From: an uncultured Rikenellaceae bacterium
Lineage (GTDB): Bacteria; Bacteroidota; Bacteroidia; Bacteroidales; Tenuifilaceae
Direction: 5' to 3'
NCBI GenBank assembly: GCA_964563065.1
Contig: CAZLXF010000002.1
Location: 1-33,381 of the forward strand
Length of the DNA stretch: 33,381 bases
In this document: positions 4,826-31,976 of the stretch, in pieces
Position numbering within the stretch: position 1 is the first letter of the stretch
Layout: every line of letters begins with the position of its first letter
The notes under the pieces: generated by a model
What the model saw: the letters and a program-made list of their open reading frames with translations, nothing else
Database searches by the model: none
Told to the model about the DNA's origin: nothing
Program-made: the position numbers and the translations under genes

Positions 4826-5665
4826 ATGATAATTACAGATCAGGATCTTCAATACTTTGTTAGTGCTCTTAAAAATTCTTCTAAGTACGACTTTAGCGAG
4901 TACTCCGACAAGTCGCTAAAGCGTAGGCTGCAGAAGGTTTTAGAAGATTTTAATCTTGATATCACGGGACTTATCTCGGCTCTTCGTAACGACAGTGACT
5001 TTTCAGAGAAAATTGTTAAAGAAATTACCGTAAACACCACCGAACTGTTTCGTGACCCACAGGTTTGGCACACGCTACGTTCACGAATTCTACCTCGTTT
5101 CAAGAACAACAAAACCATTAACATTTGGCATGCTGGGTGCTCAACTGGCCAGGAGGTTTACTCCATGATGATTCTCCTGAACGAGATGGGAATGTTTGAC
5201 AAAGCAAAAATTTTTGCATCGGACCTAAACACCGATGTGCTTGAAGCAGCCAAAAAAGGACTTTACAAATACCGTTTCAACATTGGGTATCTCGATAATT
5301 TCGACAAGGTTATTAAGCAAAACCCGCTAAACTACGAAGAGTTTAACGATGTTCCCTACGAAACCTACTTCGATATCGATAAGGTTAGGGATGCCATAAC
5401 CATGAAAAAGTTTTTAACCGAAAAGCCCATTTTCAGAAAACACGATTTGGTAAAGGATGGGAACCTATTCTTCGCCAAATTCGACCTCATTCTGTGCAGA
5501 AACGTAATAATCTACTTTAACTACTCGTTGCAAAACAAAGTATTTGAACTTTTCCACACAAATCTCTACAACAAAGGGGTTCTGCTGCTTGGGATGCACG
5601 AAACAATACTTGGACCATGGGCTGCAAAGTTCGATAAAATGGGGCAAGCTTACATTAAAAAATAA
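4826..5665 (+). CDS. cheR: CheR-type protein-glutamate O-methyltransferase (motifs intact)
   Basis: The N-terminal helical domain reads YDFSEYSDKSLKRRL...TELFRDPQVW. Motif I is INIWHAGCSTGQEVYS, post-I is ASDLNTDVLEAAKKGLY, and CRNVIIYFN is present. Confidence 0.88.
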   Translation: MIITDQDLQYFVSALKNSSKYDFSEYSDKSLKRRLQKVLEDFNLDITGLISALRNDSDFSEKIVKEITVNTTELFRDPQVWHTLRSRILPRFKNNKTINIWHAGCSTGQEVYSMMILLNEMGMFDKAKIFASDLNTDVLEAAKKGLYKYRFNIGYLDNFDKVIKQNPLNYEEFNDVPYETYFDIDKVRDAITMKKFLTEKPIFRKHDLVKDGNLFFAKFDLILCRNVIIYFNYSLQNKVFELFHTNLYNKGVLLLGMHETILGPWAAKFDKMGQAYIKK

Positions 5666-5690
5666 TTTGGCAGTTTAATTAGTTATAGGC

Positions 5691-8060
5691 ATGAAGTTTT
5701 TAAAAAACATGAGCATAAATCGAAAAATTCAACTGGTTGTTGTTTCCCTGCTGGTTGTTCTCTTTGCTGCTTCTGCCATTGTAGTTTACTCAACTTCCTC
5801 CAAGCAATCAAAAGCCACTGTTGACAAGCAAATGATGCTGTACCTAAACCAACTTGACAACATAATTACACTGATTGAAAGGAATACCGAAACGGGCTTC
5901 AACCACAACGACTACATACAAATTAAACCGTACTTTAGCCAAAACCCATATTTTAAAACTGACTTCCCGTTTCTTATCGATATTTCTGGAAATTATCTGA
6001 TTCATCTATACAAAGAGGGGCAGAAATTCCCTCGCGAGCACCTAAAAGAAATGCTCACAAATCCTGAAAAGAAGGGAGTTATTACCTACGAAGAATACAA
6101 GAATTCGCAACGATATCAAGTTTCTCTCTACTTCAAAAAAATTGAGCCCTACAACTCATTCATTGCGGTTCCAGTAAACCAGCAGGAAACCTCATCTGCT
6201 TTAAGCAAAACCTTACTTCTTCTTATTATTCTAGTAATTGCTAGTTCACTAATATCCTTCTACGTAATACGAATAACCCTAAAACCATTCATGCTAGCAA
6301 TTGCTAAAATTAGCAATAATGTTGCACAACTGTCTAAAGGCCAAATAGCTTCTAAAGTAAGCCATTCGCACAACGACGAAGTAGGGCAAATAACGCAATA
6401 TCTTAACCAACTTATTGACGGAATTCAACGAACAACACACTTTGCGAAGAGCATAGGTAAAAACGAGCTGGATGTTGAGTTTATTCCCCTCAGCGAAAAC
6501 GATGAACTTGGAAACTCGTTGCTCGAATTGAAAAATGGCATGCTAAAAACAGCAAAGGAAAGCGAACAGCGAAAACAACAGGACGAACAACGAAACTGGA
6601 GCACCTCGGGAATTGCCAAGTTTGGCGACATACTACGTCAAAACAACAACAACCTGCAACTGCTTTCCGATAGCGTTATCCAAAACCTTGTAAACTACCT
6701 TGATGCTAACCAAGGGGGCTTGTTCATGCTTAACGAATCTGACAATAACAAACCATTCTTAGAACTCATTTCGGCCTTTGCCTTCAACCGGAAAAAAACC
6801 AAAACAAAAACCATTCTTTTGGGAGAAGGGCTAGTAGGAAATTGTGCTGTTGAAAAGCAATCCATTTACCTAAAAGAGATTCCCGAAGATTACATTGAAA
6901 TAACTTCTGGATTAGGCGATGCGCCTCCACGTTCGCTTTTAATTGTTCCTCTCAAACTTGAAGAAAAATTATTTGGAGTAATTGAGTTGGCCTCGTTTAA
7001 AGAGTTCCAGCCCCACGAAATAGAGTTCGTTGAAATTATTGGAGAAAGCATCGCCTCTACCCTCTCGGCTGTAAAAAACAACATCCGAACAAACGAGCTA
7101 CTAGAGCAATCGCAGCAACAACGCGAAGAAATGGCCGCTCAGGAGGAAGAAATGCGACAGAACATGGAGGAAATGCAGGCCACACAGGAAGAAATGGCTC
7201 GTAAAACCCTCGAAATGGAGGGTATGACTGCTGCCATTAACGAATCGCTCATTTTTGCCGAACTATCCGACGATGGCAACTTCCATATGGCTAATCCTAA
7301 CTTTATTAGCCTCACTGGCTATGGGAAAACAGAAATTGAAAGCAAGCGTATATCCGACTTTCTTCACCCCGAGGAAGCTGCAAACTTCCAAAAAGTATGG
7401 AAAAACATACTTACGGGCGAGCCATTTAAGGGAACTCTCAAGTGGATTAACCATAGCGATGAAGAAATTTATGTGCTAGCAAGTTTAAGTCCTGCCTTCG
7501 ACGAAAGTGGCCGCATTTTTAAAATATTCTTTCTAGGGCAAGATGTTAGCGAATCGAAAAAGCTTGAATTAAAAGCTCAGGCCCAAGCCGAAGAGATTGA
7601 ACAGAGCCTTATGGAGCTGGAAATGGAACAGGAGCTTTCCAAACAACGCGAACAAGAAATGGATGCCTTGCTTCAGGCGCTGGACACAACCTGCCTTGTA
7701 ACACAATTCGATCCGGATGGTCGCATAACATACATCAACAATAAGAATGTGGAAACCCTGGGTGATCCGAAAAGTAAAATCGAAGGGAAATTCCATGCCG
7801 AACTCGACCTACAGGCAAAAAGCAACCCTCAAGGGTACAAACAGTTCTGGGACGATCTGCTCCTTGGCATTCAGAAAATTAGGGAGTTTTCGCTTGATGT
7901 TAGCGGTAAAACTGTGTGGATATCAGAACACTATACTCCCATCAAAAACAAAGAGGGGAAAGTTATTAAAATTATAAATATTGGTATTGATATTTCTGCC
8001 TCAAAAGAAACAGAAAAAAAACTAAGAGAAGCTGTTAACGCTTTAAAGAAGGAGAAGTAA
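5691..8060 (+). CDS. Membrane sensor with no recognisable output domain: TM, extracytoplasmic domain, TM, HAMP, GAF, EE-heptad coiled coil, PAS, coiled coil, PAS
   Basis: Two TM segments (about residues 13-33 and 174-194) flank a region of about 140 aa. A HAMP-like segment follows (KPFMLAIAKISNNVAQLS...EVGQITQYLNQLIDGI). The GAF domain contains GLVGNCAVEKQSIYL...LLIVPLKLEEKLFGVIELASF. The coiled coil reads EEMAAQEEEMRQNMEEMQATQEEMARK. Two PAS-like modules follow. The protein ends without a kinase, MCP-signalling, cyclase or phosphatase domain. Confidence 0.8.
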   Translation: MKFLKNMSINRKIQLVVVSLLVVLFAASAIVVYSTSSKQSKATVDKQMMLYLNQLDNIITLIERNTETGFNHNDYIQIKPYFSQNPYFKTDFPFLIDISGNYLIHLYKEGQKFPREHLKEMLTNPEKKGVITYEEYKNSQRYQVSLYFKKIEPYNSFIAVPVNQQETSSALSKTLLLLIILVIASSLISFYVIRITLKPFMLAIAKISNNVAQLSKGQIASKVSHSHNDEVGQITQYLNQLIDGIQRTTHFAKSIGKNELDVEFIPLSENDELGNSLLELKNGMLKTAKESEQRKQQDEQRNWSTSGIAKFGDILRQNNNNLQLLSDSVIQNLVNYLDANQGGLFMLNESDNNKPFLELISAFAFNRKKTKTKTILLGEGLVGNCAVEKQSIYLKEIPEDYIEITSGLGDAPPRSLLIVPLKLEEKLFGVIELASFKEFQPHEIEFVEIIGESIASTLSAVKNNIRTNELLEQSQQQREEMAAQEEEMRQNMEEMQATQEEMARKTLEMEGMTAAINESLIFAELSDDGNFHMANPNFISLTGYGKTEIESKRISDFLHPEEAANFQKVWKNILTGEPFKGTLKWINHSDEEIYVLASLSPAFDESGRIFKIFFLGQDVSESKKLELKAQAQAEEIEQSLMELEMEQELSKQREQEMDALLQALDTTCLVTQFDPDGRITYINNKNVETLGDPKSKIEGKFHAELDLQAKSNPQGYKQFWDDLLLGIQKIREFSLDVSGKTVWISEHYTPIKNKEGKVIKIINIGIDISASKETEKKLREAVNALKKEK

Positions 8061-8084
8061 GGCAAAGTTTCAGACTACAAAGAA

Positions 8085-8918
8085 ATGATGACACGATACG
8101 AAATAGGCATAGTAGAAACCCGAAACGTAATCAAAACTTTACTTGAAACGTTTGATTACGATTTTAGCGATTATGCGCTTACTTCCTTCAAGCGAAGACT
8201 TGAGGATATTATCATAAATAACGGGTTAAAGGATGCTGAAGGACTTATTAACAGACTAAAAAACAACAAAGACTACTTTGAGCATTTCCTCCGTGAAATT
8301 ACCCCTGAAACTACCGAGATGTTTCGCGATCCATCGCTTTGGCGAGCTCTCCGCGATGATATTATTCCGGATATCACAAGAGCATCGGGTAAATTGAAGT
8401 TCTGGGTTGCCAATTTCGATTCGGGCGAGGATTTATACTCGCTTTGCATAACCCTGAAAGAAATGGGCATTCTAAAGGAATCAACTGTTTACTGCTCATC
8501 TATAAGCAATGTAGTTGAACAAAAAATAAAAAGCGGTAAAATTGACGTTAAGCAAATTGAAACTAACGAAGCTAACTATACTCGCTGTAACGGGGACAAC
8601 CAATATGCCGATTACGTTGCTGTTAACAACGGAATAGCTACAATTGATACTACACTAATAGAGAACGTAACCTTTCTGAAGCAAAATACGCTATTCAACA
8701 ATTGCCCCAACAGCATAAAACTTTTGCTCTTTAGGAACCAAATTATATACTACAACCAGTCGTTACAGGATAAGATAATTAACACCATTTCAAACAGCCT
8801 GGTTGGTGGTGGTTACTTCGCCATTGGAGCAAAAGAAACCTTGGATAATACGAACACAAGCAATAAATTTACCGTGGTTAACGATGGCGAAAAAATTTAC
8901 AAAAAGAAAACAGGTTAA
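8085..8918 (+). CDS. CheR-family paralog with divergent SAM-binding motifs
   Basis: The CheR N-terminal domain is conserved (YDFSDYALTSFKRRL...TEMFRDPSLW). Motif I reads FWVANFDSGEDLYS, where the first paralog has WHAGCSTGQEVYS. Post-I reads CSSISNVVE where the first paralog has ASDLNTDVLE. The last motif reads FRNQIIYYN. Confidence 0.75.
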   Translation: MMTRYEIGIVETRNVIKTLLETFDYDFSDYALTSFKRRLEDIIINNGLKDAEGLINRLKNNKDYFEHFLREITPETTEMFRDPSLWRALRDDIIPDITRASGKLKFWVANFDSGEDLYSLCITLKEMGILKESTVYCSSISNVVEQKIKSGKIDVKQIETNEANYTRCNGDNQYADYVAVNNGIATIDTTLIENVTFLKQNTLFNNCPNSIKLLLFRNQIIYYNQSLQDKIINTISNSLVGGGYFAIGAKETLDNTNTSNKFTVVNDGEKIYKKKTG

Positions 8919-8923
8919 ATACA

Positions 8924-9484
8924 ATGTATAAAGCAGTAATTATAGGTGGCTCGGCCGGAAGTTTTCAGGTAATAACTAAAATTTTAAGTTCATTACCTCC
9001 AAACTTTCATTTACCTGTTCTTCTTAGCCTTCACAGGCTAAAACATGTTCGAAGCGGGTTTGTTGAGGCACTATCCATTAAGGCATCAATACCTGTTATT
9101 GAACCATTCGATAAGGATCAGATAAAACCAGGAAAAGCATACTTGGCTCCGGCTAACTACCATATGTTTGTTGAGTTGGGAAACAAAATTGCTCTCTCAA
9201 CCGAGGAGCCCGTAAACCATTCTCGCCCATCTATCGACCTATCGTTTGTTACGGCAGCACAAGTTTACCGCGAAAAGCTAATCGGCATTATTCTTTCTGG
9301 AGCCAACAAGGATGGGGCTTACGGGTTAAAGAAAATTAAGGATTATGGCGGAATTACTATAGTTCAAGATCCGGAGGAATGTCAGGTAAAAACAATGACC
9401 GAATCATCGTTACGGCTCTCAAAAGCCGATCATATACTAAAAACCAATGAAATCATTAGATTTCTACAAAATCTTAAACCCTAA
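8924..9484 (+). CDS. cheB: CheB-type protein-glutamate methylesterase, catalytic domain only (no REC domain)
   Basis: This 186-aa product aligns by eye to the CheB C-terminal domain. VIIGGSAGS supplies the Ser, LSLHRLKH the His, RPSIDLSF is conserved, and LSGANKDGA supplies the Asp. There is no N-terminal receiver. Confidence 0.8.
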   Translation: MYKAVIIGGSAGSFQVITKILSSLPPNFHLPVLLSLHRLKHVRSGFVEALSIKASIPVIEPFDKDQIKPGKAYLAPANYHMFVELGNKIALSTEEPVNHSRPSIDLSFVTAAQVYREKLIGIILSGANKDGAYGLKKIKDYGGITIVQDPEECQVKTMTESSLRLSKADHILKTNEIIRFLQNLKP

Positions 9485-9496
9485 CCCCGATGCCCA

Positions 9497-10303
9497 ATGA
9501 AAAAACTCTCATTCAAATCGAGATTTAGCCACGGCATCCTGCTGTTAATACTCCTTGCCGGAGCAATTACATCGGCATTTGCCATGCATAACATCGTGTT
9601 GCAAAAGGGAGGCACACTAACCTTTTTCCCCATTCTTCTGATGCTTGTTGCAATTGCAGCAGGAATTATGCTTTACCAAAAAGCAGCATCGTACTACCGG
9701 TATTTCCATAAAAAGTCGGAAGAGTTAGACCACCTAAAAAAATCCATTGAGCAAGCACGGCAAGCAGAGGAAGAGGAGATAGCTAAAAGAAGCATGCAAA
9801 ATCAAGAACAGGTAATCGTTGATTTCGAAGCAGAAGCAAAATCTGTTATTCCAACCGAAACCTTCGAAAACACTGAACATTTTATCGAGAAATTGTTAGC
9901 TAACATTGCCAATAAGTTTGAAATAGTTCAGGGGCTTGTTTCTCTTTACAATACAGAAAAAGAAAAATTCGCTTTCTCTGGCGGTTACGCATACTTCTCC
10001 GAGGAACTTCCCCGCGAATTCATTGAAGGAGAAACTCTTTCGGGACAGGTTGCAAAAAATAAAGTTTTGCTAAACCTCAATAATGTTCCTGACGGTTACA
10101 TCACAATTCTTTCGGGACTTGGTAAAGGAACACCCAATAACCTAATTATAGCCCCTATACTAACAAACCAAAGCGAGTGCACTGGTGTAATTGAGTTGGC
10201 TTCATTTAAAACCTTCACCAAGAACGACGAGGAGGTTTTTCGGTACCTAGGCAAATCGCTTGGCGAACATTTTGAAAACGAAACACAAAGCAATGAGGAG
10301 TAA
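9497..10303 (+). CDS. Small membrane-anchored GAF-domain protein (2 TM, coiled coil, GAF; no output domain)
   Basis: The TM segments are [22 protein letters not shown] and [20 protein letters not shown]. The coiled coil reads [25 protein letters not shown]. The GAF core [22 protein letters not shown]....[10 protein letters not shown] is paralogous to the two neighbouring sensors. Confidence 0.75.
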   Translation: [268 protein letters not shown]

Positions 10304-10306
10304 TTT

Positions 10307-12919
10307 ATGGTAACTCATAGCAAAATATCTTCAACCACACAAACCAAGTTCATCTCCCACAAGGTAATGATGGCTGGCGTAATAGGTTTGCTCTTCCTCG
10401 TTCTTGCCTGGATTTTGGAGTTCACAGGACAAAACATTCCTTTCTCCATAAATGGTATTGGAAAAATACATTCCATCAACCCAGCCCTTTGGATAACTGA
10501 TATTCTTCCATTACTGTTTGCCTACGTAACTTGGATTCTCCTTTCAAAACATCAAGAAAAGGTTGTTTTCCTTGAAGAGGAAATTCAGCAACGCGACGAC
10601 GACATTAACAAAAACGCACTTTTCGCCAAAAAAATTGGCGAAGGCGATTACAATGCCATCCTTGAAATTAGCGATGAGGAGGACATCCTTGGGAAATCGC
10701 TCCTTGTGATGCGCGATAATCTTCTAGAAAACAATAAAAAGGAGTCGGAACAAAACTGGATTTCTACAGGAAAAGATGAAGTATCGCACATTCTTCGCCT
10801 GCATAACAACATCGATGAGTTAACCTATGAAGTTCTGGTTAAACTAATTAACTACATAAACGTAATTCAGGGAGCCCTGTACATTTTCGATGAGGATAAA
10901 AAAATCCTAAAAAACCTTTCCACATACGCATATTCTCGAAAAAAATTCATTAACCAAGAGTTTAAAATTGGGCAAGGTTTAATTGGACAATGTGCCTACG
11001 AACGCGATTTTATATACAGAACCGAGATTCCCGACAACTACATTTCAATAACATCGGGTATTCTGGGCGACAAGAAGCCCAAGAGCCTTCTGATAGTTCC
11101 CCTAATAACCGACGAGAAGCTACAGGGAGTTATCGAGTTTGCATCGCTTGACGATAGTATCCCCGAACTCACAATCCGTTTCTTAAAAGAAATGGGCGAA
11201 ATCATTGCCCGAACCATTTTCAACCTCAGGGTAAACCAAAAAACAGAAAGGTTACTGCAGGAAGCCCAGCAGATGACTCAGGAACTTAAGGAGAACGAAG
11301 AGGAACTTCGCCAGAATGCCGAAGAGATGAGGGCTACACACGAGGAACTTGAGAAATCGAACGCTCAACTCGAACAAAAAATTAAGGAGGTTGAAAACGC
11401 ACAGAAACGCCTGCACTCATTACTCGAAAATGCTTCAGAGATTATTTCGATATATAGCAGCAGCTTAAAGCTCACCTACATAAGTCCTTCGGTTACTAAA
11501 ATACTGGGTTACACCCCGCAGGAAATGATGAGCGGCAAGGACATTGACCGTCTCACTCGAAAAGGTGAACAGGATTTGAGCGAGATGTTCCACAAGCTGC
11601 TGGATTCGCCTCGCATGCCCATAACCATCCAGTACACTTTCATGAAGAAGGACGGGGAAAAAATATTCCTCGAGGTTACCGGCCGCAACCTGCTCGACGA
11701 TACTGCTATAAACGGCATAATACTTAATTCCCAAGATATTACCGAGCGTAAAAGAGCCGAAAAAGAAGAGCGCATGCGCAGTAAAATGCAGGCACTTTCG
11801 GAGAACTCGCCCGATATGATTATTCGCCTTAACACTGCCGGCCAATTCTTCTATGCTAACCCAATGGTTGAGCAGTACCTTGGCATTCCTGTAAAAGACT
11901 TGATTAACCAAACGTTAAACTCCATCGATATTAACGAAACCCTTCTTTCGTTCTTCAAGGAAGCAATAAAAACAATAAAAACAACCAAGCAGAAAGTTGA
12001 AGATGATTTAACGTTCGATACGAAAATTGGCCAAACCATAATGCACATTTCGGCAATCCCTGAATTTAACGAGAACGAACTTGAAACAATACTTTTTGTT
12101 AGCCACGATATTACCGAAGCCAAACGTATTGAACTGGAAATTCAGGATAAGAACAGGAAAATAACCGAGAGTATAAACTACGCACAACGCATTCAAACAT
12201 CAATACTACCTAACAACAAAATAATTCGACAGTATCTTCCAAAATCGTTCATTTACTATAAACCTCGCGATGTGGTTAGCGGCGATTTCCCTTGGTTCTT
12301 CATTAAGGAAGATTACATATACATTGCAGCAGTGGACTGTACAGGGCACGGGGTTCCTGGAGCACTTCTTTCGTTCATTGGTTACTTCACTCTCAACAAC
12401 GTTGTTGACCATGACATAACCTACAGTGCAGGAAAAATTCTCGATGTACTCCATTTTGGAGTCCGCAAAACCCTAAAACAGGATAGGCCGGATGCTGATG
12501 CTCGTGATGGAATGGACATTGCTCTTTGTAAAATAAACATAAAGAAAAAAGAGTTACAGTATTCTGGCGCCCACAGGCCACTTTACCTCCTGCGCAACAA
12601 AGAGTTACTAGAATATAAGGGTAATAGGAAGGCAATTGGAGGGATTCCTCATCCCAAAAAGGAGGAATCCGACTTTACCAACTATTTCATCGAGATAAAA
12701 CAGGGCGATAAAATTTTCTTCTTCTCAGATGGTATGCCCGACCAGGTTGGTGGTTCTGACTTAAAAAAATACGGACCAGCAAGGGTTCGGGACATTATTA
12801 CTGCGAATCCAAATATGACAATGCCCCAGTACAATGAGATTTTCTCAAAAGATTTTGAAGAGTACAAGGGTGAAAATAAGCAAATTGACGACGTTTTACT
12901 AATTGGTATCGAATTCTAA
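10307..12919 (+). CDS. SiaA-like membrane PP2C/SpoIIE phosphatase: 2 TM, HAMP-remnant, GAF, EE-heptad coiled coil, 2 PAS, PP2C
   Basis: The GAF domain contains GLIGQCAYERDFIY...LLIVPLITDEKLQGVIEFASL. The coiled coil reads QELKENEEELRQNAEEMRATHEELEKSN. Two PAS modules follow. The C-terminal SpoIIE/PP2C domain shows the metal-ligand pattern VSGDF...AAVDCTGHGVPGA...DGMDIAL...FFFSDGMPDQ...DDVLLIGIEF. Confidence 0.85.
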   Translation: MVTHSKISSTTQTKFISHKVMMAGVIGLLFLVLAWILEFTGQNIPFSINGIGKIHSINPALWITDILPLLFAYVTWILLSKHQEKVVFLEEEIQQRDDDINKNALFAKKIGEGDYNAILEISDEEDILGKSLLVMRDNLLENNKKESEQNWISTGKDEVSHILRLHNNIDELTYEVLVKLINYINVIQGALYIFDEDKKILKNLSTYAYSRKKFINQEFKIGQGLIGQCAYERDFIYRTEIPDNYISITSGILGDKKPKSLLIVPLITDEKLQGVIEFASLDDSIPELTIRFLKEMGEIIARTIFNLRVNQKTERLLQEAQQMTQELKENEEELRQNAEEMRATHEELEKSNAQLEQKIKEVENAQKRLHSLLENASEIISIYSSSLKLTYISPSVTKILGYTPQEMMSGKDIDRLTRKGEQDLSEMFHKLLDSPRMPITIQYTFMKKDGEKIFLEVTGRNLLDDTAINGIILNSQDITERKRAEKEERMRSKMQALSENSPDMIIRLNTAGQFFYANPMVEQYLGIPVKDLINQTLNSIDINETLLSFFKEAIKTIKTTKQKVEDDLTFDTKIGQTIMHISAIPEFNENELETILFVSHDITEAKRIELEIQDKNRKITESINYAQRIQTSILPNNKIIRQYLPKSFIYYKPRDVVSGDFPWFFIKEDYIYIAAVDCTGHGVPGALLSFIGYFTLNNVVDHDITYSAGKILDVLHFGVRKTLKQDRPDADARDGMDIALCKINIKKKELQYSGAHRPLYLLRNKELLEYKGNRKAIGGIPHPKKEESDFTNYFIEIKQGDKIFFFSDGMPDQVGGSDLKKYGPARVRDIITANPNMTMPQYNEIFSKDFEEYKGENKQIDDVLLIGIEF

Positions 12920-12957
12920 ATTGATTATTATCGGTAAATTATTTAATTTTACGGGCT

Positions 12958-13533
12958 ATGGACAAAAAGAATGTTAAAGGGTTTCTTGAGTTTGTTTACG
13001 ACTTTTACAAGTCGATGAAAGCTCATGAGATCACCCTTGTGTACGAGGGTGAAATTACCCACCAAATCACCAAGGCCTTTACCTCCCTAACCGAGTCGAA
13101 CATGGCAAAGGAGGAAGAGTCTAACTCTGTGCAGAAGAAAGTCTTCCATGTAATGGTTGAGTGCCTGCAAAACATCAGCAAGCACGCCGATAGCTTCGGA
13201 TCAGACGACTTTCTATTTGCCGGACGAGGAATCTTTATGGTGAGTAAAGGCGAAATTGAGTACCACGTTACTACTGGGAACGTGATTGAGAACACAAAAA
13301 TTGATGAACTTACTGGTATTCTCGACCACATCAACACCCTGGACAAGGACGGTTTGAAGGAGTTGTACAAAACACAGATGCGTGAAGGACGGCTCTCTGA
13401 AAAAGGTGGAGCAGGACTTGGGTTTATCGACATTGCCAGAAAAACTGGTCGTAAACTTGAGTACCACTTCCTCCCCATCGACGAGGAGAACCACTTCTTT
13501 ATTTTAACCTCAACCATTTCCAGAAACGAGTAA
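12958..13533 (+). CDS. SiaB-like GHKL-fold Ser/Thr protein kinase (partner-switch kinase)
   Basis: This 191-aa product has an N-box-like segment (VMVECLQNISKHA) and a G2-box-like segment (EKGGAGLGFIDIARKTG). Its position immediately between a PP2C phosphatase and a DUF1987 gene matches siaB. Confidence 0.7.
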   Translation: MDKKNVKGFLEFVYDFYKSMKAHEITLVYEGEITHQITKAFTSLTESNMAKEEESNSVQKKVFHVMVECLQNISKHADSFGSDDFLFAGRGIFMVSKGEIEYHVTTGNVIENTKIDELTGILDHINTLDKDGLKELYKTQMREGRLSEKGGAGLGFIDIARKTGRKLEYHFLPIDEENHFFILTSTISRNE

Positions 13534-13548
13534 GAAAATACAAGAGCT

Positions 13549-13932
13549 ATGGAAACCATAAAGATCATGGGTACCGATGATACCCCAACTGTTATACTTG
13601 ACGCGGACAACGATATCTTTGAGATATCAGGTCGCTCTCTTCCCGAGGATGTAACCGCATTTTACGAACCAATTCTTAACTGGCTCGACGATTACGCCAA
13701 CTCGCCTAACGCCAAAACCGTGTTTACCTTTAAACTTGTTTACTTTAACACAGCAAGTTCAAAACTTTTGCTCGATATACTTATGAAACTTGAGCAAATG
13801 CACGAAGATGGCAAGGAAGTGCTAATCCGATGGTTCTATCCTGAAGACGATGAGGACATGCAAGAAGCCGGCGAAGAATATGCCGACATTGTTGATATAC
13901 CATTTGAACAAGTAAGCTACACGCTAAGCTAA
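13549..13932 (+). CDS. SiaC-like regulatory phosphoprotein (DUF1987 family)
   Basis: This 127-aa product reads GTDDTPTVILDADNDIFEISGRSLPEDVTAFYEPILNWLDDY......FKLVYFNTASSKLLLDIL..L........V.IRWFYPEDDEDM.E.GEE. This matches the DUF1987 pattern, including the YxNT(S/A)S motif. Confidence 0.78.
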   Translation: METIKIMGTDDTPTVILDADNDIFEISGRSLPEDVTAFYEPILNWLDDYANSPNAKTVFTFKLVYFNTASSKLLLDILMKLEQMHEDGKEVLIRWFYPEDDEDMQEAGEEYADIVDIPFEQVSYTLS

Positions 13933-13971
13933 ACATATTGCCAGCGGGCTTGTCTTAACAAAACTTAAGCA

Positions 13972-16900
13972 ATGAGTGAAGAGATTCTCAAGGCTTTAAT
14001 GCAACTGTTTGCAATTATTGCAAAACAGGACGAAGGCGTTGAATCAAACGAACGCGACTTCGTTGTGAATTTCCTTACTCAACAACTCAACGATGAGGCT
14101 GTTAAAGAGTACATAAACCTTTTCGATCAGCATGCAGGCCTCAACGACGAAAAAGAAGAGGATGAAGGCGAAGAGGGAAAACCCAAAAAGGTAAAGCTTA
14201 CCTCGGTAAAAGACTCCGTAAAGATTCTGGGAATTTGTAAGAAGATTAACAAAACGCTTACCCAGGAACAAAAGGTTGTTGTACTGGTTCGCCTTTTCGA
14301 GCTGGTTAACGCCGACCGAAAATTTACCGACCAACGTATGGCCATTATCAACACAGTGGCCGAAGTTTTTAAGCTAACCAAAGAAGAGTTTCAGGATATC
14401 GAGAATTTCGTTATTAATAACGACCCCAAAGATCTCGATTACGCAAGCATCCTCAGCATTCATGACCAAGAAGAGCACGGTGTTCATTGCAAACACATAC
14501 CAACCGAAGCCCTAAACGGGCATCTGTTTATTCTGCAAATAAAAAGTGTTGACCTTTACTTCCTACGCTACACTGGAAATGAAGATATTTTTCTAAATGG
14601 GCTCCCAATTAACCACAAGCGTATCTACCTATTTGCTAGTGGCAGTTCCATTAAGCTACCCAAAGGTAAGCCAGTTTACTACACCGATGTAGTTGCTCAC
14701 TACCTTGCCGACCTTAGCGCCACCCGTATTTGCTATAACGTTCAAGATGTTGGTTTCCAATTCAAATCGGGCGACATTGGCCTACGAAATATCAGTTTCA
14801 AGGAGGAGCATGGCAAACTTATTGGGATAATGGGCGCCAGCGGCGCTGGTAAAACTACCCTTCTCAACGTTCTTGCTGGAGTTGAAAAGCCAACCAGCGG
14901 CAAAGTGCTTATAAACGGCTTCGACTTACATAATGAAAAAGATAAAATTGAAGGTGTTATTGGGTTAATCCCACAGGACGACCTGCTAATTGAAGAACTC
15001 ACGGTTTTCCAGAATCTATACTATAACGCCAAACTTTGCTTTAAAGACAAAACAGAAGAAGAACTAGTTGCACAGGTTGAAAAAACGCTAAATAGCCTTG
15101 GCCTACTTGAAAGAAAGGATCTTAAGGTTGGCTCGCCAATGAACAAGATGATTTCAGGCGGACAGCGGAAAAGATTGAACATAGCCCTCGAACTTATCCG
15201 TGAACCCTCCATCTTGTTTGTCGATGAACCAACTTCCGGACTTTCTTCTCGCGACTCAGAGAATGTTATGGACCTACTAAGGGAACTAACCCTTAAAGGC
15301 AAACTTATTTTTGTTGTTATCCACCAGCCATCGTCCGACATATACAAAATGTTCGACAATATGGCCATTCTCGATACTGGTGGATACCTTATTTATTATG
15401 GTAACCCAGTTGAGGCGGTTATGTACTTTAAACGCCTCGACATGCAAATAAACAGCGATGTGGGCGAATGTCCCACATGCGGTAACGTTAACCCTGAACT
15501 TATTTTCAACATAATTGAAGCAAAAGTTGTTGACGAATTTGGACGCTACACGCCCATACGTAAAGTTTCGCCACCAAAATGGGAGGACTATTACAAAGAT
15601 AATATTAAGCTGAGGGAGGTAACCGACGAAACTGAACCGCCACCAAAATCGCTCGACATTCCTTCCGCTTTCAAACAATTCTTAATTTACACCACCCGCG
15701 ACTTTCTTTCAAAAGTTAGTAACACACAGTACATCGTTTTAAACCTGCTTGAAACTCCCATTTTAGGATTTATACTAGCATTCGTAATTCGATACATTGC
15801 CGACCCGAACTCGAACATATACATTTTTCGTGAAAACGAAAACATACCTATATATATATTTATGGCGCTTATTGTTGCTCTTTTCATTGGGCTTACTGTT
15901 AGTGCCGAGGAAATATTTCGCGATAGAAAGATTTTGAAACGCGAAGCGTTTCTCAACCTTAGCCGGACATCGTACCTTTTCAGTAAAATTTCAATTCTTG
16001 TGGTTCTTTCGGCAATACAAAGCATAACCTTTGTTCTAATTGCAAACGGCATACTTCAACTCAAGGGAATGAACTTTGAATACTGGCTGGTTCTTTTCTC
16101 AACTGCTGTTTTTGCTAACTTGCTTGGCCTAAACATATCTGCAACATTTAACTCTGCCGTTACCATATACATAGTAATTCCTCTTTTAATGATTCCCATG
16201 ATGGTTCTTTCTGGAGCCATGTTTAGCTTCGAAAAGCTAAATAGAGCGGTTGGTAGTTTCAGCCGAGTGCCAGTTATTGCAGAATTCATGGTAACAAAAT
16301 GGGGCTACGAGGCCCTTGTCGTCCGGCAGTACAAGGATAATGATTTCCAGAAAAATTTCTACGAAATAGAAAAGGTTGAACGCAACGCAAACTATAAAAC
16401 GGTATACTACATCCCTGAAATTGAGAAGAAAGTACTCGAAACTTTAGATTTTCTTGAGAAAACAGATATCGAAACCCAGCAAAGGTTAAAAGAAGATTTA
16501 GGCACTATTCATAAAGCCATCTTCACTGAAACTAATTACTTAGCGCCTGGGGTTCCTTTCAGTTTCATTGATAGTATTAATATAAATAGCTATTCATTCG
16601 AAACGGCTTATGCTATTATTGACTATTTAGATGCGCTAAAAAATCATTATAGTAAGATTTTTCAGGGGGCAAACCAGAAACGCGACCGAATTATTAACCA
16701 CCTGGTTAGCACAAACCCCAAACTTTACGAAGCAAAAAGAAGAGCATACCATAACGAGAGCATTGCCGATTTGGCCGAAAAAGTATTCGAAAAAAATAAG
16801 ATACTTTTATACAAGGATGAATTTGTACAACAGTACGATCCAATTTATCGCGATCCCTTACCAAGACACGCACTTGATTTTCGTTCTCACTTTTTAGCTC

Positions 16901-17061
16901 CACGAAAATTCTTTTTAGGACAATTCTTCGATACATTTTGGTTCAATATTTGCTTTATGTGGTTTATGTCTATAGTTCTTTACATAACTCTTTACTTTGA
17001 ATCGTTAAAAAAACTGCTAGATCTTTCCTCTAAAATTAAAATACCATGGAGGAAAAAATAA
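13972..17061 (+). CDS. ABCG-type half-transporter (ATPase then ABC-2 permease) with an N-terminal TerB-like helical region and an FHA-like beta module
   Basis: Walker A is GASGAGKTTLLNVLAG, the Q-loop is IPQDD, the signature is ISGGQRKRLNIA, Walker B is ILFVDEPTSGLS and the H-loop is VIHQPS. About 6 TM segments follow. The N-terminal ~160 aa are helical with TerB-like segments (LFAIIAKQDEGVESNERDFV and LFELVNADRKFTDQRMAII). Residues ~175-235 (HLFILQIKSVDLYFLRYTGNEDIFLNGLPI...IYLFASGSSIKL) resemble the C-terminal half of an FHA fold. Confidence 0.85.
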   Translation: MSEEILKALMQLFAIIAKQDEGVESNERDFVVNFLTQQLNDEAVKEYINLFDQHAGLNDEKEEDEGEEGKPKKVKLTSVKDSVKILGICKKINKTLTQEQKVVVLVRLFELVNADRKFTDQRMAIINTVAEVFKLTKEEFQDIENFVINNDPKDLDYASILSIHDQEEHGVHCKHIPTEALNGHLFILQIKSVDLYFLRYTGNEDIFLNGLPINHKRIYLFASGSSIKLPKGKPVYYTDVVAHYLADLSATRICYNVQDVGFQFKSGDIGLRNISFKEEHGKLIGIMGASGAGKTTLLNVLAGVEKPTSGKVLINGFDLHNEKDKIEGVIGLIPQDDLLIEELTVFQNLYYNAKLCFKDKTEEELVAQVEKTLNSLGLLERKDLKVGSPMNKMISGGQRKRLNIALELIREPSILFVDEPTSGLSSRDSENVMDLLRELTLKGKLIFVVIHQPSSDIYKMFDNMAILDTGGYLIYYGNPVEAVMYFKRLDMQINSDVGECPTCGNVNPELIFNIIEAKVVDEFGRYTPIRKVSPPKWEDYYKDNIKLREVTDETEPPPKSLDIPSAFKQFLIYTTRDFLSKVSNTQYIVLNLLETPILGFILAFVIRYIADPNSNIYIFRENENIPIYIFMALIVALFIGLTVSAEEIFRDRKILKREAFLNLSRTSYLFSKISILVVLSAIQSITFVLIANGILQLKGMNFEYWLVLFSTAVFANLLGLNISATFNSAVTIYIVIPLLMIPMMVLSGAMFSFEKLNRAVGSFSRVPVIAEFMVTKWGYEALVVRQYKDNDFQKNFYEIEKVERNANYKTVYYIPEIEKKVLETLDFLEKTDIETQQRLKEDLGTIHKAIFTETNYLAPGVPFSFIDSININSYSFETAYAIIDYLDALKNHYSKIFQGANQKRDRIINHLVSTNPKLYEAKRRAYHNESIADLAEKVFEKNKILLYKDEFVQQYDPIYRDPLPRHALDFRSHFLAPRKFFLGQFFDTFWFNICFMWFMSIVLYITLYFESLKKLLDLSSKIKIPWRKK

Positions 17062-17117
17062 TTTTTTTTTATATATTTACTTGTTTAGAATTATAGTTTA
17101 ATACAAAAAACAAAGTT

Positions 17118-18029
17118 ATGGCAAGGATCATTCCAGTACTTCTAATAATATCTGTGTTACTGTCATCATGCAGGTCATGCAATAAAGATCAGGATGCTAA
17201 CAAGGAGTTTGATATCCCCGAAGAATTAATGAGCGATGAACAACCGCTACCAGTTTCCTCGGAAGTAATTGACGAGATAGTACAAAACGTTTCTTCGCCT
17301 GTTGAAACTGCGGCTCTTATCAAGGGTTTAAAAGTTCCGTTTAACAAGGACTATATGGCCACTACCGGTAGCGCCAAGAACATGAACACAAGTTTCCAAA
17401 AAGCGTTAGGGCTTGGCATATACGGAGCCGACCTAGGTTACCTAAACATGTATGAAAAAACAACTGTTGTAATTGACTACATATCTACGGTAAAGGAACT
17501 TGCCGATGGAATTCAAGTAGGTCAGTTTTTCGACTTCAACACCCTCCGTCGAATTGCTACAAACAAGGAGAACCTAGATTCATTGATGCTTATTTCTCAG
17601 CAAAGTTTCAATAAAATTGACAGCTACCTTCGAGAAACCAACCGTGCAAGCCTTAGCGTTGTTATTATTGCAGGCGTTTGGCTTGAGGGTCTTTACCTTT
17701 CTACCAGAGTTGCACAGGACGCAAATCACCCTCGAATTAACGAAACCATTGGTGAGCAAAAGGTTATTATGGGAACCTTAATGGCTCTTCTAAACAACTA
17801 CAAACGCGACCCCAACATTGCATCCTTAATTTCTGATTTTGAAGAAATTAAGGATCTATATAAAGATGTAACTATTACATACGAAATTGGAGGGGAACCA
17901 ACTCCCGTTGTAAAAGATGGTGTTCTCACTTTTACTCAAAATGATGTCCAAACCATTACAATGTCCGACGAAACGCTACAGGCCATTATTACAAAGGTGC
18001 AAACGTTAAGAAACAAATTAATTAGTTAA
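17118..18029 (+). CDS. Lipoprotein of unknown family
   Basis: The signal peptide carries a lipobox (VLLSSC). The mature part is predicted mostly helical. I recognise no motif. Confidence 0.65.
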   Translation: MARIIPVLLIISVLLSSCRSCNKDQDANKEFDIPEELMSDEQPLPVSSEVIDEIVQNVSSPVETAALIKGLKVPFNKDYMATTGSAKNMNTSFQKALGLGIYGADLGYLNMYEKTTVVIDYISTVKELADGIQVGQFFDFNTLRRIATNKENLDSLMLISQQSFNKIDSYLRETNRASLSVVIIAGVWLEGLYLSTRVAQDANHPRINETIGEQKVIMGTLMALLNNYKRDPNIASLISDFEEIKDLYKDVTITYEIGGEPTPVVKDGVLTFTQNDVQTITMSDETLQAIITKVQTLRNKLIS

Positions 18030-18048
18030 TCAGCGAAATTTAAAGGCT

Positions 18049-18486
18049 ATGAAAAACACATATTTAATTCTACTACTTACATTTTTTCTCTCCGGGGCCT
18101 CATCAATAACCTTTGCTCAATCGGAAGATGATTTAGTTGAAATCTGTGGAATGATTGCACAGGATGCAACCTACCTAAAAGATTTTAAGGTTAGGCTTGA
18201 TGCAGGAAATCCGCCACCAGTTCAACGTTTCTCTGTAATTCTGAAGAAAGGTATTAAGTACAGATTTTCCGTGTGCAACTCAAAGGATTACGAAGGAAAA
18301 GTTGTTCTTCAACTACTCGACAACAATCGCTTGCTAGCAACCACGCACGTTGTTGCCAGTGGTCAGGATTACCCATCAATTGATTATGTTTGTACAAAAA
18401 CTGGAGCTTACCACCTCTTTTTCAACTTTAAGGACGGAAAACCTGGATTGGCTGTGGGGCTACTTTCGCTGGTTGAAACCATATAG
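18049..18486 (+). CDS. Small secreted protein of unknown family
   Basis: The signal peptide is MKNTYLILLLTFFLSGASSITFAQ. The mature domain is beta-rich and about 120 aa, with 3 Cys. It is the last gene before a terminator. Confidence 0.6.
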   Translation: MKNTYLILLLTFFLSGASSITFAQSEDDLVEICGMIAQDATYLKDFKVRLDAGNPPPVQRFSVILKKGIKYRFSVCNSKDYEGKVVLQLLDNNRLLATTHVVASGQDYPSIDYVCTKTGAYHLFFNFKDGKPGLAVGLLSLVETI

Positions 18487-18507
18487 CCTTAATACAAATA
18501 TTAAGAA

Positions 18508-18535
18508 AGGGGTGCTTTTTGTGTACCCCTTTTTC
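18508..18535 (+). terminator. Rho-independent terminator ending the 4826-18486 gene string
   Basis: AGGGGT (18508-18513) pairs with ACCCCT (18525-18530), followed by a T-run. Confidence 0.6.
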
Positions 18536-18599: not shown

Positions 18600-18600
18600 G

Positions 18601-18674
18601 CTCCTCATCTAGGACTTGAACCTAGGACCCCCTGATTAACAGTCAGGTGCTCTAACCAACTGAGCTAATGAGGA
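18601..18674 (-). tRNA. tRNA-Asn (anticodon GTT)
   Basis: The minus strand reads TCCTCAT-TA-GCTC-AGTTGGTTA-GAGC-A-CCTGA-CTGTTAA-TCAGG-GGGTC-CTAGG-TTCAAGT-CCTAG-ATGAGGA-G. This folds into a 74-nt cloverleaf with a 7-bp acceptor stem and GTT in the anticodon loop. CCA is not encoded. Confidence 0.93.
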
Positions 18675-22155: not shown

Positions 22156-22611
22156 GTGGACACACTAAGCTACAAAACTGTATCGGCCAACGATGCCACC
22201 GTTAACAAAGAGTGGATTATGGTTGATGCTACCAACGAGGTTTTGGGGCGACTGGCCAGCAAAGTAGCAAAAATGCTACGCGGCAAGTACAAGCCAAGCT
22301 TCACACCACACGTTGACTGTGGTGATAACGTTATCGTTATCAATGCCGAGAGGGTACGCTTAACCGGTAAAAAACTTACCGACAAGCAGTACGTACACTA
22401 CACTGGTTATCCGGGAGGACAACGCTTTGGAACCCCAAAGGAGTGGCTACATCGTAAGCCCGCTGCAGTAATTGAACATGCAGTAAAAGGGATGCTTCCA
22501 AAGAACCGCCTTGGTTCTAAAATTTACGGAAACCTTCATGTATACGCAGGTTCTGAGCACCCACATGAAGCCCAAAAACCAAAGGAAATTAAACTAAACT
22601 CAATTAAATAG
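22156..22611 (+). CDS. rplM: 50S ribosomal protein L13
   Basis: The start is GTG. The N-terminus is MDTLSYKTVSAN....NKEW..VDA....LGRLAS.VAK.LRGK.KP.FTPHVDCGDNVIVINA. Confidence 0.96.
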   Translation: MDTLSYKTVSANDATVNKEWIMVDATNEVLGRLASKVAKMLRGKYKPSFTPHVDCGDNVIVINAERVRLTGKKLTDKQYVHYTGYPGGQRFGTPKEWLHRKPAAVIEHAVKGMLPKNRLGSKIYGNLHVYAGSEHPHEAQKPKEIKLNSIK

Positions 22612-22616
22612 AAGTT

Positions 22617-23003
22617 ATGCAGGTTTACAACGCAACAGGAAGAAGGAAAAGCGCTGTGGCTCGTGTTTACCTCCTCGAAGGCAAAGGAAACATAACCATC
22701 AACGGAAAAGATATTAAGGATTACTTCCCCTCAGAACTTATGCAGTATGTGGTTAAGCAACCTCTTGAAGTTCTGAACCTTTTGGGCAACTACGATGTTA
22801 AAGTTAACGTCGATGGTGGAGGAGTAAAAGGACAAGCCGAGGCTCTCCGTTTGGGCATAGCCCGTGCACTGGTTGAAATCAACCCTGAACACAAACCAAC
22901 CCTTAAGGCAAATGGTTTCATGACTCGCGATCCACGTGAAGTAGAACGTAAGAAACCTGGCCAACCAAAGGCAAGGAAGAGATTCCAGTTCAGCAAACGT
23001 TAA
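22617..23003 (+). CDS. rpsI: 30S ribosomal protein S9
   Basis: The product reads GRRK.AVARV.L..G.G.I.ING...DYF......GGG..GQA.A.R.GI.RAL and ends in ....RKKPGQPKARKRFQFSKR. Confidence 0.96.
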   Translation: MQVYNATGRRKSAVARVYLLEGKGNITINGKDIKDYFPSELMQYVVKQPLEVLNLLGNYDVKVNVDGGGVKGQAEALRLGIARALVEINPEHKPTLKANGFMTRDPREVERKKPGQPKARKRFQFSKR

Positions 23004-23112
23004 AATATTACTATTCATTTGGCAAACAGCTTACGCTGTAAATTGTTAGGACTTTCTTTTCAGAAGCTACCTAACGATTGCCATAATTTACAAACAATCA
23101 ATTTAAACTAAA

Positions 23113-23985
23113 ATGCCAAGAACCGATTTTAAAGAATTACTCGACGCTGGTGTACACTTTGGTCACCTTAAGCGCAAGTGGAATCCTAAAATGGCTCCCT
23201 ACATCTTCATGGAACGCAATGGGATCCATATTATTGACCTGCAGAAAACTGCAATAAAAGTTGAAGAAGCTGCCTCGGCTGTTAAGCAAATTGCCAAGTC
23301 GGGTCGTAAAGTACTTTTTGTTGCCACAAAAAAACAGGCAAAGGAAATTGTTTCCGAAAGAGTTAAGCAAGTTAACATGCCATACGTTACTGAGCGCTGG
23401 CCAGGTGGTATGCTCACCAACTTCCCCACAATCCGTAAGGCAGTTAAAAAAATGTCGTCAATTGATAAGATGTTAACCGACGGCACTTTCGATAACCTCT
23501 CAAAACGCGAGAAGCTACAAATTACTCGTCAGCGTGCTAAACTAGAAAAGAACCTTGGATCGATTGTAGATCTAAACCGTTTGCCTGCTGCACTTTTTGT
23601 TGTTGACGTACAGAAAGAATACATTGCTGTTAGAGAAGCAAAAAAATTGAATATCCCGGTATTTGCAATGGTTGATACCTGCTGTGATCCAACACCCATC
23701 GATTTTGTGATTCCGGCCAATGACGATGCTTCCAAGTCAATTTCTCTAATTGTCGACATCATGTCAAAAGCTATCGAGGAAGGTTTGAACGAACGTAAGG
23801 CGGAGAAGGAGAAAGAACCTACCAGTCAAGATAACGATGATTCTGATGTTCAGCCAAAAGTTGCACGCACAAGGGCAAGAAAAGGGCCAAAAACCGAGAA
23901 GCCAAAAGCACCTGTTGCAAAAAAGCAAGATGATGAAAACGTTGAGGCTAAAGAGGCTGACGACAAAAAACCAGCCGAAGAATAG
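23113..23985 (+). CDS. rpsB: 30S ribosomal protein S2, with a charged low-complexity C-terminal tail
   Basis: The product reads LLDAGVHFGH.KRKWNPKM.PYIF..RNGIHIIDL.KT....EEA...ERW.GGMLTN. The tail from about 23788 is K/E/D/P-rich. Confidence 0.96.
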   Translation: MPRTDFKELLDAGVHFGHLKRKWNPKMAPYIFMERNGIHIIDLQKTAIKVEEAASAVKQIAKSGRKVLFVATKKQAKEIVSERVKQVNMPYVTERWPGGMLTNFPTIRKAVKKMSSIDKMLTDGTFDNLSKREKLQITRQRAKLEKNLGSIVDLNRLPAALFVVDVQKEYIAVREAKKLNIPVFAMVDTCCDPTPIDFVIPANDDASKSISLIVDIMSKAIEEGLNERKAEKEKEPTSQDNDDSDVQPKVARTRARKGPKTEKPKAPVAKKQDDENVEAKEADDKKPAEE

Positions 23986-24025
23986 CATCAAAATCAACAT
24001 AATTTGTAATTAAAATATTTTAAAA

Positions 24026-24856: not shown

Positions 24857-24877
24857 TTTTCACCGAAATATATTAGG

Positions 24878-24903
24878 AGCCACCTTTGGGGTGGCTTTTT
24901 TTT
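24878..24903 (+). terminator. Rho-independent terminator after tsf
   Basis: AGCCACC (24878-24884) pairs with GGTGGCT (24890-24896), followed by a T8 run. Confidence 0.7.
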
Positions 24904-24994
24904 ATGCATATATTTGTTGTAGTAGAAAAATTTCATATCCATATAGGTACTTATTTTCCTGTTTTACTATTTTTACAAAATAATACAAAATCGC

Positions 24995-25705: not shown

Positions 25706-25737
25706 ATATTTTTACCCTCGATAAAAACGAAAAACCA

Positions 25738-31883: not shown

Positions 31884-31967
31884 GCCCGGATGGCGGAATT
31901 GGTAGACGCGCTGGTCTCAAACACCAGTGGTAGCAATACCGTGCCGGTTCGACCCCGGCTCCGGGTA
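31884..31967 (+). tRNA. tRNA-Leu (anticodon CAA), type II with a long variable arm
   Basis: The fold is GCCCGGA-TG-GCG-GAATTGGTAGA-CGC-G-CTGGT-CTCAAAC-ACCAG-T-GGTAGCAATACC-G-TGCCGG?TTCGACC-CCGGC-TCCGGGT-A. The acceptor has a G1-U72 wobble, the anticodon loop is CTCAAAC, and the variable arm stem is GGTA/TACC. Confidence 0.9.
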
Positions 31968-31976
31968 CAAAAAACG

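Follow-up and report, generated by a model that had tools for sequence, protein, structure and literature searches.

The best-described relative of the locus analysed here is the SiaABCD system of Pseudomonas aeruginosa (PA0172-PA0169), in which SiaC, a structurally STAS-like protein, is phosphorylated on T68 by the kinase SiaB and dephosphorylated by the phosphatase SiaA, and in which unphosphorylated SiaC binds the stalk of the SiaD cyclase through N67, T68 and S69 (PMC7647112, PMC8457831). SiaABC stands alone as a characterised case within a very large family (the SiaC family counts 4885 representatives in a library of 50%-identity clusters) and is known so far only as a regulator of a cyclic diguanylate (c-di-GMP) cyclase in Pseudomonas; outside this genus the SiaC family is essentially uncharacterised, a full-text search having turned up DUF1987 in a single paper. 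Here we analyse a stretch of 33,381 nucleotides (nt) from an uncultured Rikenellaceae bacterium, placed in the Tenuifilaceae by GTDB (contig CAZLXF010000002.1 of assembly GCA_964563065.1, positions 1 to 33,381 of the forward strand), which as a whole is called the window in what follows. It carries, at 4826-18486, an operon of eleven genes, all on the + strand, with a Sia-like phosphatase, kinase and substrate at its core and an ABC exporter directly behind them. This locus is a well-defined and deeply conserved case of the Sia switch in a non-cyclase context, found in a phylum largely devoid of c-di-GMP enzymes and chemoreceptors, and it suggests an uncharacterised signalling route. We estimate at roughly 50% the probability that the output of this switch is the co-transcribed ABCG exporter. 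The genes that carry this reading are the following:

10307..12919, + strand: SiaA-like phosphatase of 870 amino acids (aa); Pfam GAF, PAS and SpoIIE; syntenic in 71/71 loci
12958..13533, + strand: SiaB-family threonine kinase (GHKL/RsbW-like), 191 aa; DUF6272, 1e-43; syntenic in 76/76 loci
13549..13932, + strand: SiaC-family (DUF1987, STAS-like) phosphoprotein, 127 aa; PF09345, 1.2e-42
13972..17061, + strand: ABCG-type half-transporter, 1029 aa; Pfam TerB, ABC_tran and ABC2_membrane

Like the P. aeruginosa system, the window locus encodes the three families in the same order, with the threonine at the N-terminus of helix alpha2. In contrast to SiaABCD, it has no SiaD-type GGDEF protein and surrounds the switch with CheR, CheB and an ABC exporter. 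In addition, the sensor region of its phosphatase consists of transmembrane (TM), HAMP-like, GAF, PAS and PAS elements, the PP2C domain alone matching the SiaA model, and the N67/T68/S69 triad by which SiaC contacts SiaD has Ala in place of S69. The general logic of a PP2C phosphatase, a GHKL Ser/Thr kinase and a STAS-fold phospho-antagonist is also that of RsbU/RsbV/RsbW and of HptB-HsbR-HsbA-HsbD; here, however, the substrate belongs to DUF1987, the kinase to DUF6272, and the locus holds no sigma factor.

Other described systems resemble the two ends of the operon. In Mycobacterium tuberculosis, the FHA-bearing ABC exporter Rv1747 is encoded in an operon with the Thr kinase PknF and is positively regulated by phosphorylation, and a small phosphoprotein, Rv2623, docks onto its FHA I domain by way of pT237 (PMC3138270, PMC5549992). 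Similarly, the window operon joins Thr-phosphorylation machinery to an exporter of ABC-2/ABCG-like type, the cytoplasmic N-terminus of which includes a domain with an FHA-like modelled fold. The two differ in that the Rv1747 kinase is a Hanks-type serine/threonine protein kinase whereas that of the window is of the GHKL type, and in that Rv1747 carries a pair of genuine FHA domains and lacks a TerB region, whereas the window exporter has a single FHA-like domain, recognised by fold only. At the other end of the operon, the comparison is with the Wsp system of P. aeruginosa, a chemosensory pathway with a non-motility output. In Wsp-type pathways, as may be the case here, CheR- and CheB-type enzymes belong to sensory signalling with a non-flagellar output; unlike those pathways, the window operon encodes no methyl-accepting chemotaxis protein (MCP), CheA or CheW, its CheB lacks a receiver, and a PP2C/kinase switch takes the place of the histidine kinase.

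The assignment of the trio is based on several profiles and structures. The 191-aa open reading frame (ORF) reaches 177 bits with the NCBIfam model "SiaB family protein kinase" (NF038262; cut-off 85), which places it in that family; its sole relative in the PDB is SiaB itself (6kko_A, E 7e-13), and distant homologues retain its ExxQN and GAGLG nucleotide-binding boxes. The phosphatase is laid out as two TM segments, a HAMP-like region, GAF, a coiled coil, PAS, PAS and PP2C. Its PP2C domain (approximately nt 12119-12919; SpoIIE 2.7e-15) has a single PDB match, the P. aeruginosa SiaA PP2C domain (6k4e, E 1.8e-36), and the metal-binding motifs aligned to that structure (RDVVSGDF, VDCTGHGVPGAL, SDGMPDQ and DDV) are invariant in 71 orthologues. 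With its Asp motifs and SiaA as closest relative, it belongs among the SiaA-type PP2C phosphatases. A metagenome relative (locus L088) has a dCache/HAMP sensor region fused onto its phosphatase.

The 127-aa protein matches PF09345 ("SiaC family regulatory phosphoprotein") over residues 6-123 with 144.8 bits against a cut-off of 24.5, and is thus a member of the SiaC family. Its best phmmer match in the PDB is P. aeruginosa SiaC (6kko/6k4f, E 3.5e-15), and the ungapped alignment sets Thr68 (codon ACA, 13750-13752), in the peptide VYFNTASSK, on the Thr of the P. aeruginosa sequence LYLNTSSIK. The motif Y-F-N-T-A-S-S-K is invariant in 81/81 sequences. Among seven distant members of the family (from P. 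aeruginosa, Azospirillum, Paraburkholderia, Bernardetia, Persicobacter, Fulvivirga and a metagenome contig), position 68 is Thr, or Ser in one case, and Y65, N67 and S70 are invariant. The original prediction, made from the sequence of the window, had proposed a SiaB/SiaC-like pair in which a DUF1987 protein carries VYFNTASSK with Thr68 as the equivalent of the SiaC phosphosite, the genes following the order phosphatase, kinase, substrate. The PP2C gene upstream of the kinase, the ORF, the peptide and the codon are all as it described them; the P. aeruginosa proteins are the closest, or the sole, PDB relatives of the trio, with E-values far past chance; the gapless alignment and the conservation of position 68 bear out the equivalence of the threonine; and the Sia chemistry that it described agrees with both Pseudomonas papers cited above.

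None of the three proteins reaches the NCBIfam equivalog models: the kinase scores 86 bits against a cut-off of 225 (NF038264), the SiaC-like protein 88.5 against 150 for the model that denotes the same function as PA0170 (NF038265), and the phosphatase 169 against 700 for full-length SiaA (NF038263), a match that covers its C-terminal 260 residues only. As judged from these comparisons, the trio is a genuine SiaABC-type partner switch, with predicted switch chemistry, and the 127-aa protein is a member of the SiaC family and, by the same profiles, not a functional equivalent of PA0170. The SiaC family shows other arrangements as well: among the entries of one family listing (P0241-P0390), many proteins of ~250-270 aa have two tandem SiaC domains, and there are fusions of ~305-715 aa, some of the size expected for SiaB-SiaC fusions. 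One SiaC-like orthologue (P0016) is annotated as a "nuclear pore complex subunit", probably a database error.

The sub-threshold equivalog scores, together with the missing cyclase, would be expected if the pair were a decayed remnant of a SiaABCD operon that had lost its cyclase gene. The conservation of the locus speaks against this. For the comparison we assembled 80 loci from distinct Bacteroidales species, the denominators given throughout being the loci whose contig reaches far enough; the SiaC homologues listed were the best 120 matches, every one at least 83% identical, and the wider diversity of SiaC was sampled by tblastn on plasmids and chromids. The closest locus retrieved comes from a Tenuifilaceae metagenome-assembled genome (MAG) and shows 95-98% amino-acid identity for most operon proteins. 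SiaB and SiaC have the highest mean column identity in the operon (0.90 and 0.86, against 0.36-0.81 for their neighbours), and 50-53% of their columns are invariant over 77-80 species. Reading frames are intact in all loci, and neither the catalytic boxes nor the phospho-acceptor motif show any variation. Given these data, the idea of a remnant is effectively refuted, and we regard it as extremely improbable.

The gene order is likewise kept, wherever the contig allows, across the 80 Bacteroidales species. The ABC gene stands directly 3' of SiaC in 78/78 species, with a gap of 22-90 bp, and the same cluster is carried by Fulvivirga maritima (Cytophagales) and by three further metagenome contigs whose taxonomy is unassigned; the cluster spans at least two classes of Bacteroidota. 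One contig with this Bacteroidales operon (L058; its SiaC is 84% identical) has been binned into a "Kosmotogales bacterium" MAG, probably a database error.

What sets this locus apart from SiaABCD is that the GGDEF cyclase directly after siaC, the defining feature of that system, is missing. The Pfam scan, which took in most of the larger ORFs of the window and all operon genes (five peripheral ORFs lay outside it), gave no GGDEF domain. Moreover, tblastn with two SiaD-like GGDEF proteins found no match at E<=1 in the whole window, nor any within ~10 kb in 84 Bacteroidota loci (~1.4 Mb; ~1.46 Mb for all loci searched); the matches at this threshold were confined to the two proteobacterial source loci. 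These proteobacterial controls, SiaB-SiaC pairs on chromids, do have a cyclase: in Paraburkholderia, the gene after siaC, labelled "hypothetical", encodes a GGDEF protein (4.6e-33), and in Azospirillum siaC is followed by genes for a histidine kinase and a diguanylate cyclase. In the Paraburkholderia species concerned, Paraburkholderia largidicola (locus L083, 7398-8123), the SiaD-like GGDEF gene after the DUF1987 gene and a "hypothetical" PP2C gene before SiaB make up an unannotated but complete SiaABCD operon. The original prediction had stated that an ABC exporter follows the trio where a GGDEF gene would be expected, in a phylum in which c-di-GMP signalling is sparse. All of this stands: the ORF at 13972-17061 combines ABC_tran and ABC2_membrane, no GGDEF gene was found by either method, and the view of the phylum fits the census of Galperin (2005), in which the first four Bacteroidetes genomes had neither diguanylate cyclases nor MCPs. 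Like the original prediction, we infer that the output of the switch differs from the P. aeruginosa cyclase and has been rewired.

A rewired switch may still act at a distance. In this scenario the switch is real and acts on a product of some other region of the genome, whether a GGDEF cyclase far from the operon, a different enzyme or a transcription factor, and the exporter genes merely share its promoter. Indeed, the P. aeruginosa target is an enzyme and not a transporter, and the SiaB-SiaC pairs of two other Bacteroidota, Bernardetia and Persicobacter, adjoin neither a cyclase nor this exporter, which points to varied and sometimes distant partners. A gap of 22-90 bp maintained in 78/78 species across two classes is, however, hard to explain without a functional link, and neither the 84 loci nor the early Bacteroidetes genomes offer a diguanylate cyclase. 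We consider a distant target somewhat unlikely.

The exporter itself belongs to the ABCG/ABC-2 group, since ABC_tran (6.3e-33) is followed by ABC2_membrane (3.6e-21) in one polypeptide, and its residues 254-786 align to human ABCG1 and ABCG2 (E ~1e-37 to 1e-41), the best full-length matches in the PDB. In front of this core lies an N-terminal region of two further parts, so that the protein divides as follows:

13972-14436, + strand: TerB helical bundle, residues 1-155 (Pfam TerB; AlphaFold2)
14437-14757, + strand: FHA-like beta domain, residues 156-262 (AlphaFold2 model, Foldseek)
approximately 14758-15471, + strand: nucleotide-binding domain of the exporter (Pfam ABC_tran)
approximately 15649-16461, + strand: ABC-2 transmembrane domain of the exporter (Pfam ABC2_membrane)

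An AlphaFold2 model of residues 1-275, built with 87 homologues, reached a predicted local distance difference test score (pLDDT) of 87.6 and a predicted template modelling score (pTM) of 0.80; in it, the helices occupy residues 1-155 and the beta domain approximately residues 158-262. In Foldseek searches of the PDB, the helical part matched TerB-like structures (2h5n, 2ou3), and FHA domains made up most of the top 40 matches of the beta domain, among them Rad53 FHA1, MEK1, CEP170, EssC and Bdellovibrio DgcB; these matches had probabilities of 0.9-1.0 over 72-86 columns, with root-mean-square deviations of 2.4-4 A and target template modelling scores of 0.43-0.58, and with E-values of only ~1e-2. 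Because of these E-values, and because every sequence-level test for FHA failed, the modelled domain is called FHA-like at the level of the fold only. Ser192 and Asn209-Gly210 are invariant in it, in a register that comes from a weak alignment. The exporter is favoured as the target of the switch because its adjacency is invariant across deep divergence and because it carries a cytoplasmic, putatively protein-interacting domain with the predicted fold of a phosphopeptide-binding family; Rv1747 provides a precedent for the control of such an exporter by Thr phosphorylation.

The mechanism that we propose would run as follows. The GHKL-type SiaB-like kinase would phosphorylate Thr68 of the STAS-like SiaC, the membrane-anchored PP2C phosphatase would remove the phosphate, and the phosphorylation state of SiaC would select its binding partner. 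In one of its two states, SiaC would dock on the TerB/FHA-like region of the exporter; the active form may be the unphosphorylated one, as in Pseudomonas, or the one with phospho-Thr68. Docking would switch transport by the ABCG exporter on or off, in concert with a lipoprotein and a secreted partner encoded further downstream. Inputs would come from the membrane sensors of Cache, HAMP, GAF and PAS type, including the sensor region of the phosphatase itself, and the two CheR proteins and the receiver-less CheB would probably methylate and demethylate coiled coils of the phosphatase and of a paralogous sensor. That members of DUF1987 regulate the products of neighbouring genes was suggested earlier (PMC8457831), and this counts in favour of the exporter.

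A test of rate covariation over 49 species, with the shared background removed, offers a hint in favour of the exporter. SiaC covaries best with the FHA-like domain (partial r 0.38, top in 189/300 subsamples, against a 95th percentile of 0.18 under label permutation), followed by the PP2C domain of its known partner (partial r 0.30). We count this as a hint only, given that the known partner SiaB is not recovered (-0.09) and that the permutation control ignores phylogeny. In the same analysis, the rate of SiaB covaries most with the first CheR (0.75) and with CheB (0.70), as would be expected if the output lay within the signalling layer, either as feedback of SiaC or SiaB on CheB, CheR or the sensors, which would complete a loop of adaptation, or with SiaB acting as an RsbW-type anti-sigma factor and SiaC as its antagonist. 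CheB lacks the receiver that usually controls it and needs another regulator; the output of classical partner switches is bound by the kinase; and SiaB and SiaC have been described as anti-sigma-factor-like and antagonist-like, respectively (PMC7647112). Yet there is no sigma-factor gene in the operon or among the scanned ORFs of the window, no sigma partner is known for P. aeruginosa SiaB, and the covariation of SiaB with CheR and CheB derives largely from a few divergent lineages (L051, L054) and is poorly controlled for phylogeny. We find an output confined to the signalling layer quite unlikely.

Several observations weigh against the exporter as output, beyond the failure of the covariation test to recover SiaB. 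Pfam FHA matches neither the window segment (E<=10) nor any of the 87 homologues (E<=5), and hhalign against Rad53 FHA1 returned a probability of 1.4%. In the weak alignment available, the canonical Arg (of GR) and the His of SxxH are not evident, Leu standing at the position of the His. Lys174 was considered as an equivalent of the phosphate-binding Arg and was downgraded, as it is missing from a SiaC-linked homologue (L092). A module of exporter, lipoprotein and secreted protein, including the FHA-like domain, occurs without adjacent Sia or Che genes in four loci (L086, L087, L089 and L090), which indicates that the FHA-like domain is not dedicated to a neighbouring SiaC; these loci also count in favour of a target elsewhere, as does a SiaC-family gene in L089 that lies ~10 kb upstream of the exporter, with no adjacent Sia module (1-124, - strand; truncated at the locus end). 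A cyclase or a different target may be encoded elsewhere in the genome, the search having covered the window and the loci. On the input side, the coiled coils described below fit the chemoreceptor methylation consensus loosely. Finally, the SiaC-exporter contact is itself putative.

Two further results concern the N-terminal region of the exporter. A profile of 23 orthologues found no FHA match among PDB sequences. The invariant N-terminal TerB helix was rejected as a candidate docking site for SiaC, since exporters without a neighbouring SiaC conserve it to the same degree.

Upstream of the phosphatase, the operon encodes what would be the input layer:

4826..5665, + strand: CheR-type methyltransferase 1, first gene of the operon; Pfam CheR 4.7e-38 plus CheR_N; upstream in 54/54 loci
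5691..8060, + strand: 789-aa membrane sensor with Cache-like, HAMP, GAF, PAS and PAS domains and no output domain (Pfam); between both CheR genes in 38/62 loci
8085..8918, + strand: CheR-type methyltransferase 2; Pfam CheR 8.6e-20; syntenic in 64/64 loci
8924..9484, + strand: CheB methylesterase, catalytic domain only, without a receiver; Pfam CheB_methylest 7.3e-49, residues 5-179 of 186; syntenic in 67/67 loci
9497..10303, + strand: small TM-GAF membrane protein, 268 aa; Pfam GAF_2 4.5e-06, slightly under the cut-off

Two CheR proteins and the catalytic domain of CheB do not amount to a Che pathway, and no MCP, CheA or CheW (MCPsignal, CheW, or a histidine kinase with Hpt/HATPase) was found in the operon or in the other window ORFs scanned. 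Substrates for these enzymes may lie in two coiled coils. The phosphatase has a Glu/Gln-rich one directly after its GAF domain (TERLLQEAQQMTQELKENEEELRQNAEEMRATHEELEKSN; residues 313-352, nt 11243-11362), and the 789-aa sensor has another, also rich in Glu and Gln, 40 residues long and directly after GAF (residues 467-506, nt 7089-7208). The two are identical at 19/40 residues, with the core EEELRQNxEEMxATxEE, and no other stretch of the 789-aa sensor is as well conserved. It is tempting to speculate that the EE/QE pairs in these coiled coils are candidate sites of methylation or deamidation by CheR and CheB. Of all the operon proteins, the TM-GAF protein (9497-10303) shows the lowest conservation.

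The locus thus offers pathway candidates at both ends, CheR and CheB acting on coiled coils at the input and the TerB/FHA-like region of the exporter at the output. In its fullest form, the proposal would be a new pathway of non-flagellated Bacteroidota, in which CheR and CheB adapt sensors without a chemoreceptor domain, the Sia switch replaces CheA, and the FHA-like domain reads Thr68 of SiaC to gate the export of an envelope component; that all of these parts hold together seems unlikely to us. If it were true, partner-switch signalling would extend to the direct control of transport, and chemotaxis methylation enzymes would be used outside chemoreceptor arrays. The bare existence of cyclase-less pairs is not new, as NCBI already annotates them, labelling those of Bernardetia and Persicobacter "SiaB family protein kinase" and "DUF1987 domain-containing protein". 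What is new is the conserved operon architecture, the association of CheR and CheB with it in the absence of chemoreceptors, and the TerB/FHA-like region on the adjacent ABCG exporter. The CheR/CheB and sensor layer and the FHA-like domain had not been part of the original prediction.

The operon closes with two genes of the exporter module, a terminator-like element and, behind it, a tRNA gene on the opposite strand:

17118..18029, + strand: conserved lipoprotein, 303 aa, with a lipobox at Cys18; syntenic in 62/62 loci
18049..18486, + strand: conserved secreted protein, 145 aa, with conserved cysteines, last gene of the operon; syntenic in 59/59 loci
18504..18534, + strand: terminator-like hairpin followed by a T-run, end of the operon (RNAfold -17.7 kcal/mol)
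18600-18674, - strand: tRNA-Asn (Rfam)

Neither the lipoprotein nor the secreted protein gave a match in Pfam, NCBIfam or PDB profile searches, and Foldseek found nothing below E=1 for the AlphaFold2 model of the lipoprotein (pLDDT 81.6), a helical bundle with a four-stranded sheet. Both genes always come after the exporter, also in lineages without Sia and Che genes. In three of the four loci that have the module alone (L087, L089 and L090), it stands directly after an LPG_synthase_TM gene, the upstream genes of L086 being different; in the window, an LPG_synthase_TM gene is located at 1430-2707, ~2 kb upstream of the operon. That this gene adjoins the exporter module where Sia and Che genes are missing, and precedes the operon where they are present, suggests that the eight regulatory genes were inserted, or lost in other lineages, as a block. 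The Sia-less exporter subfamily has a CxxC motif in its FHA-like domain.

Intergenic gaps within 4826-18486 measure 3-56 bp, and a strong hairpin with a T-run is present solely 3' of the last gene. A search for TAnnTTTG gave no intergenic match within the operon, and a sigma-70 scan returned 37 sites against 31 expected, for a consensus that differs from the one used by Bacteroidota. Rfam matched two tRNAs only in the window, the tRNA-Asn listed above and a tRNA-Leu (31884-31968, + strand). On the other side, the operon has an ordinary flank, with a BlaI-type repressor beside a TonB_C protein at 114-1415. Downstream, a housekeeping block (22156-26301) encodes L13, S9, S2, EF-Ts, an amino-acid-kinase-family protein that is probably UMP kinase, and ribosome recycling factor.

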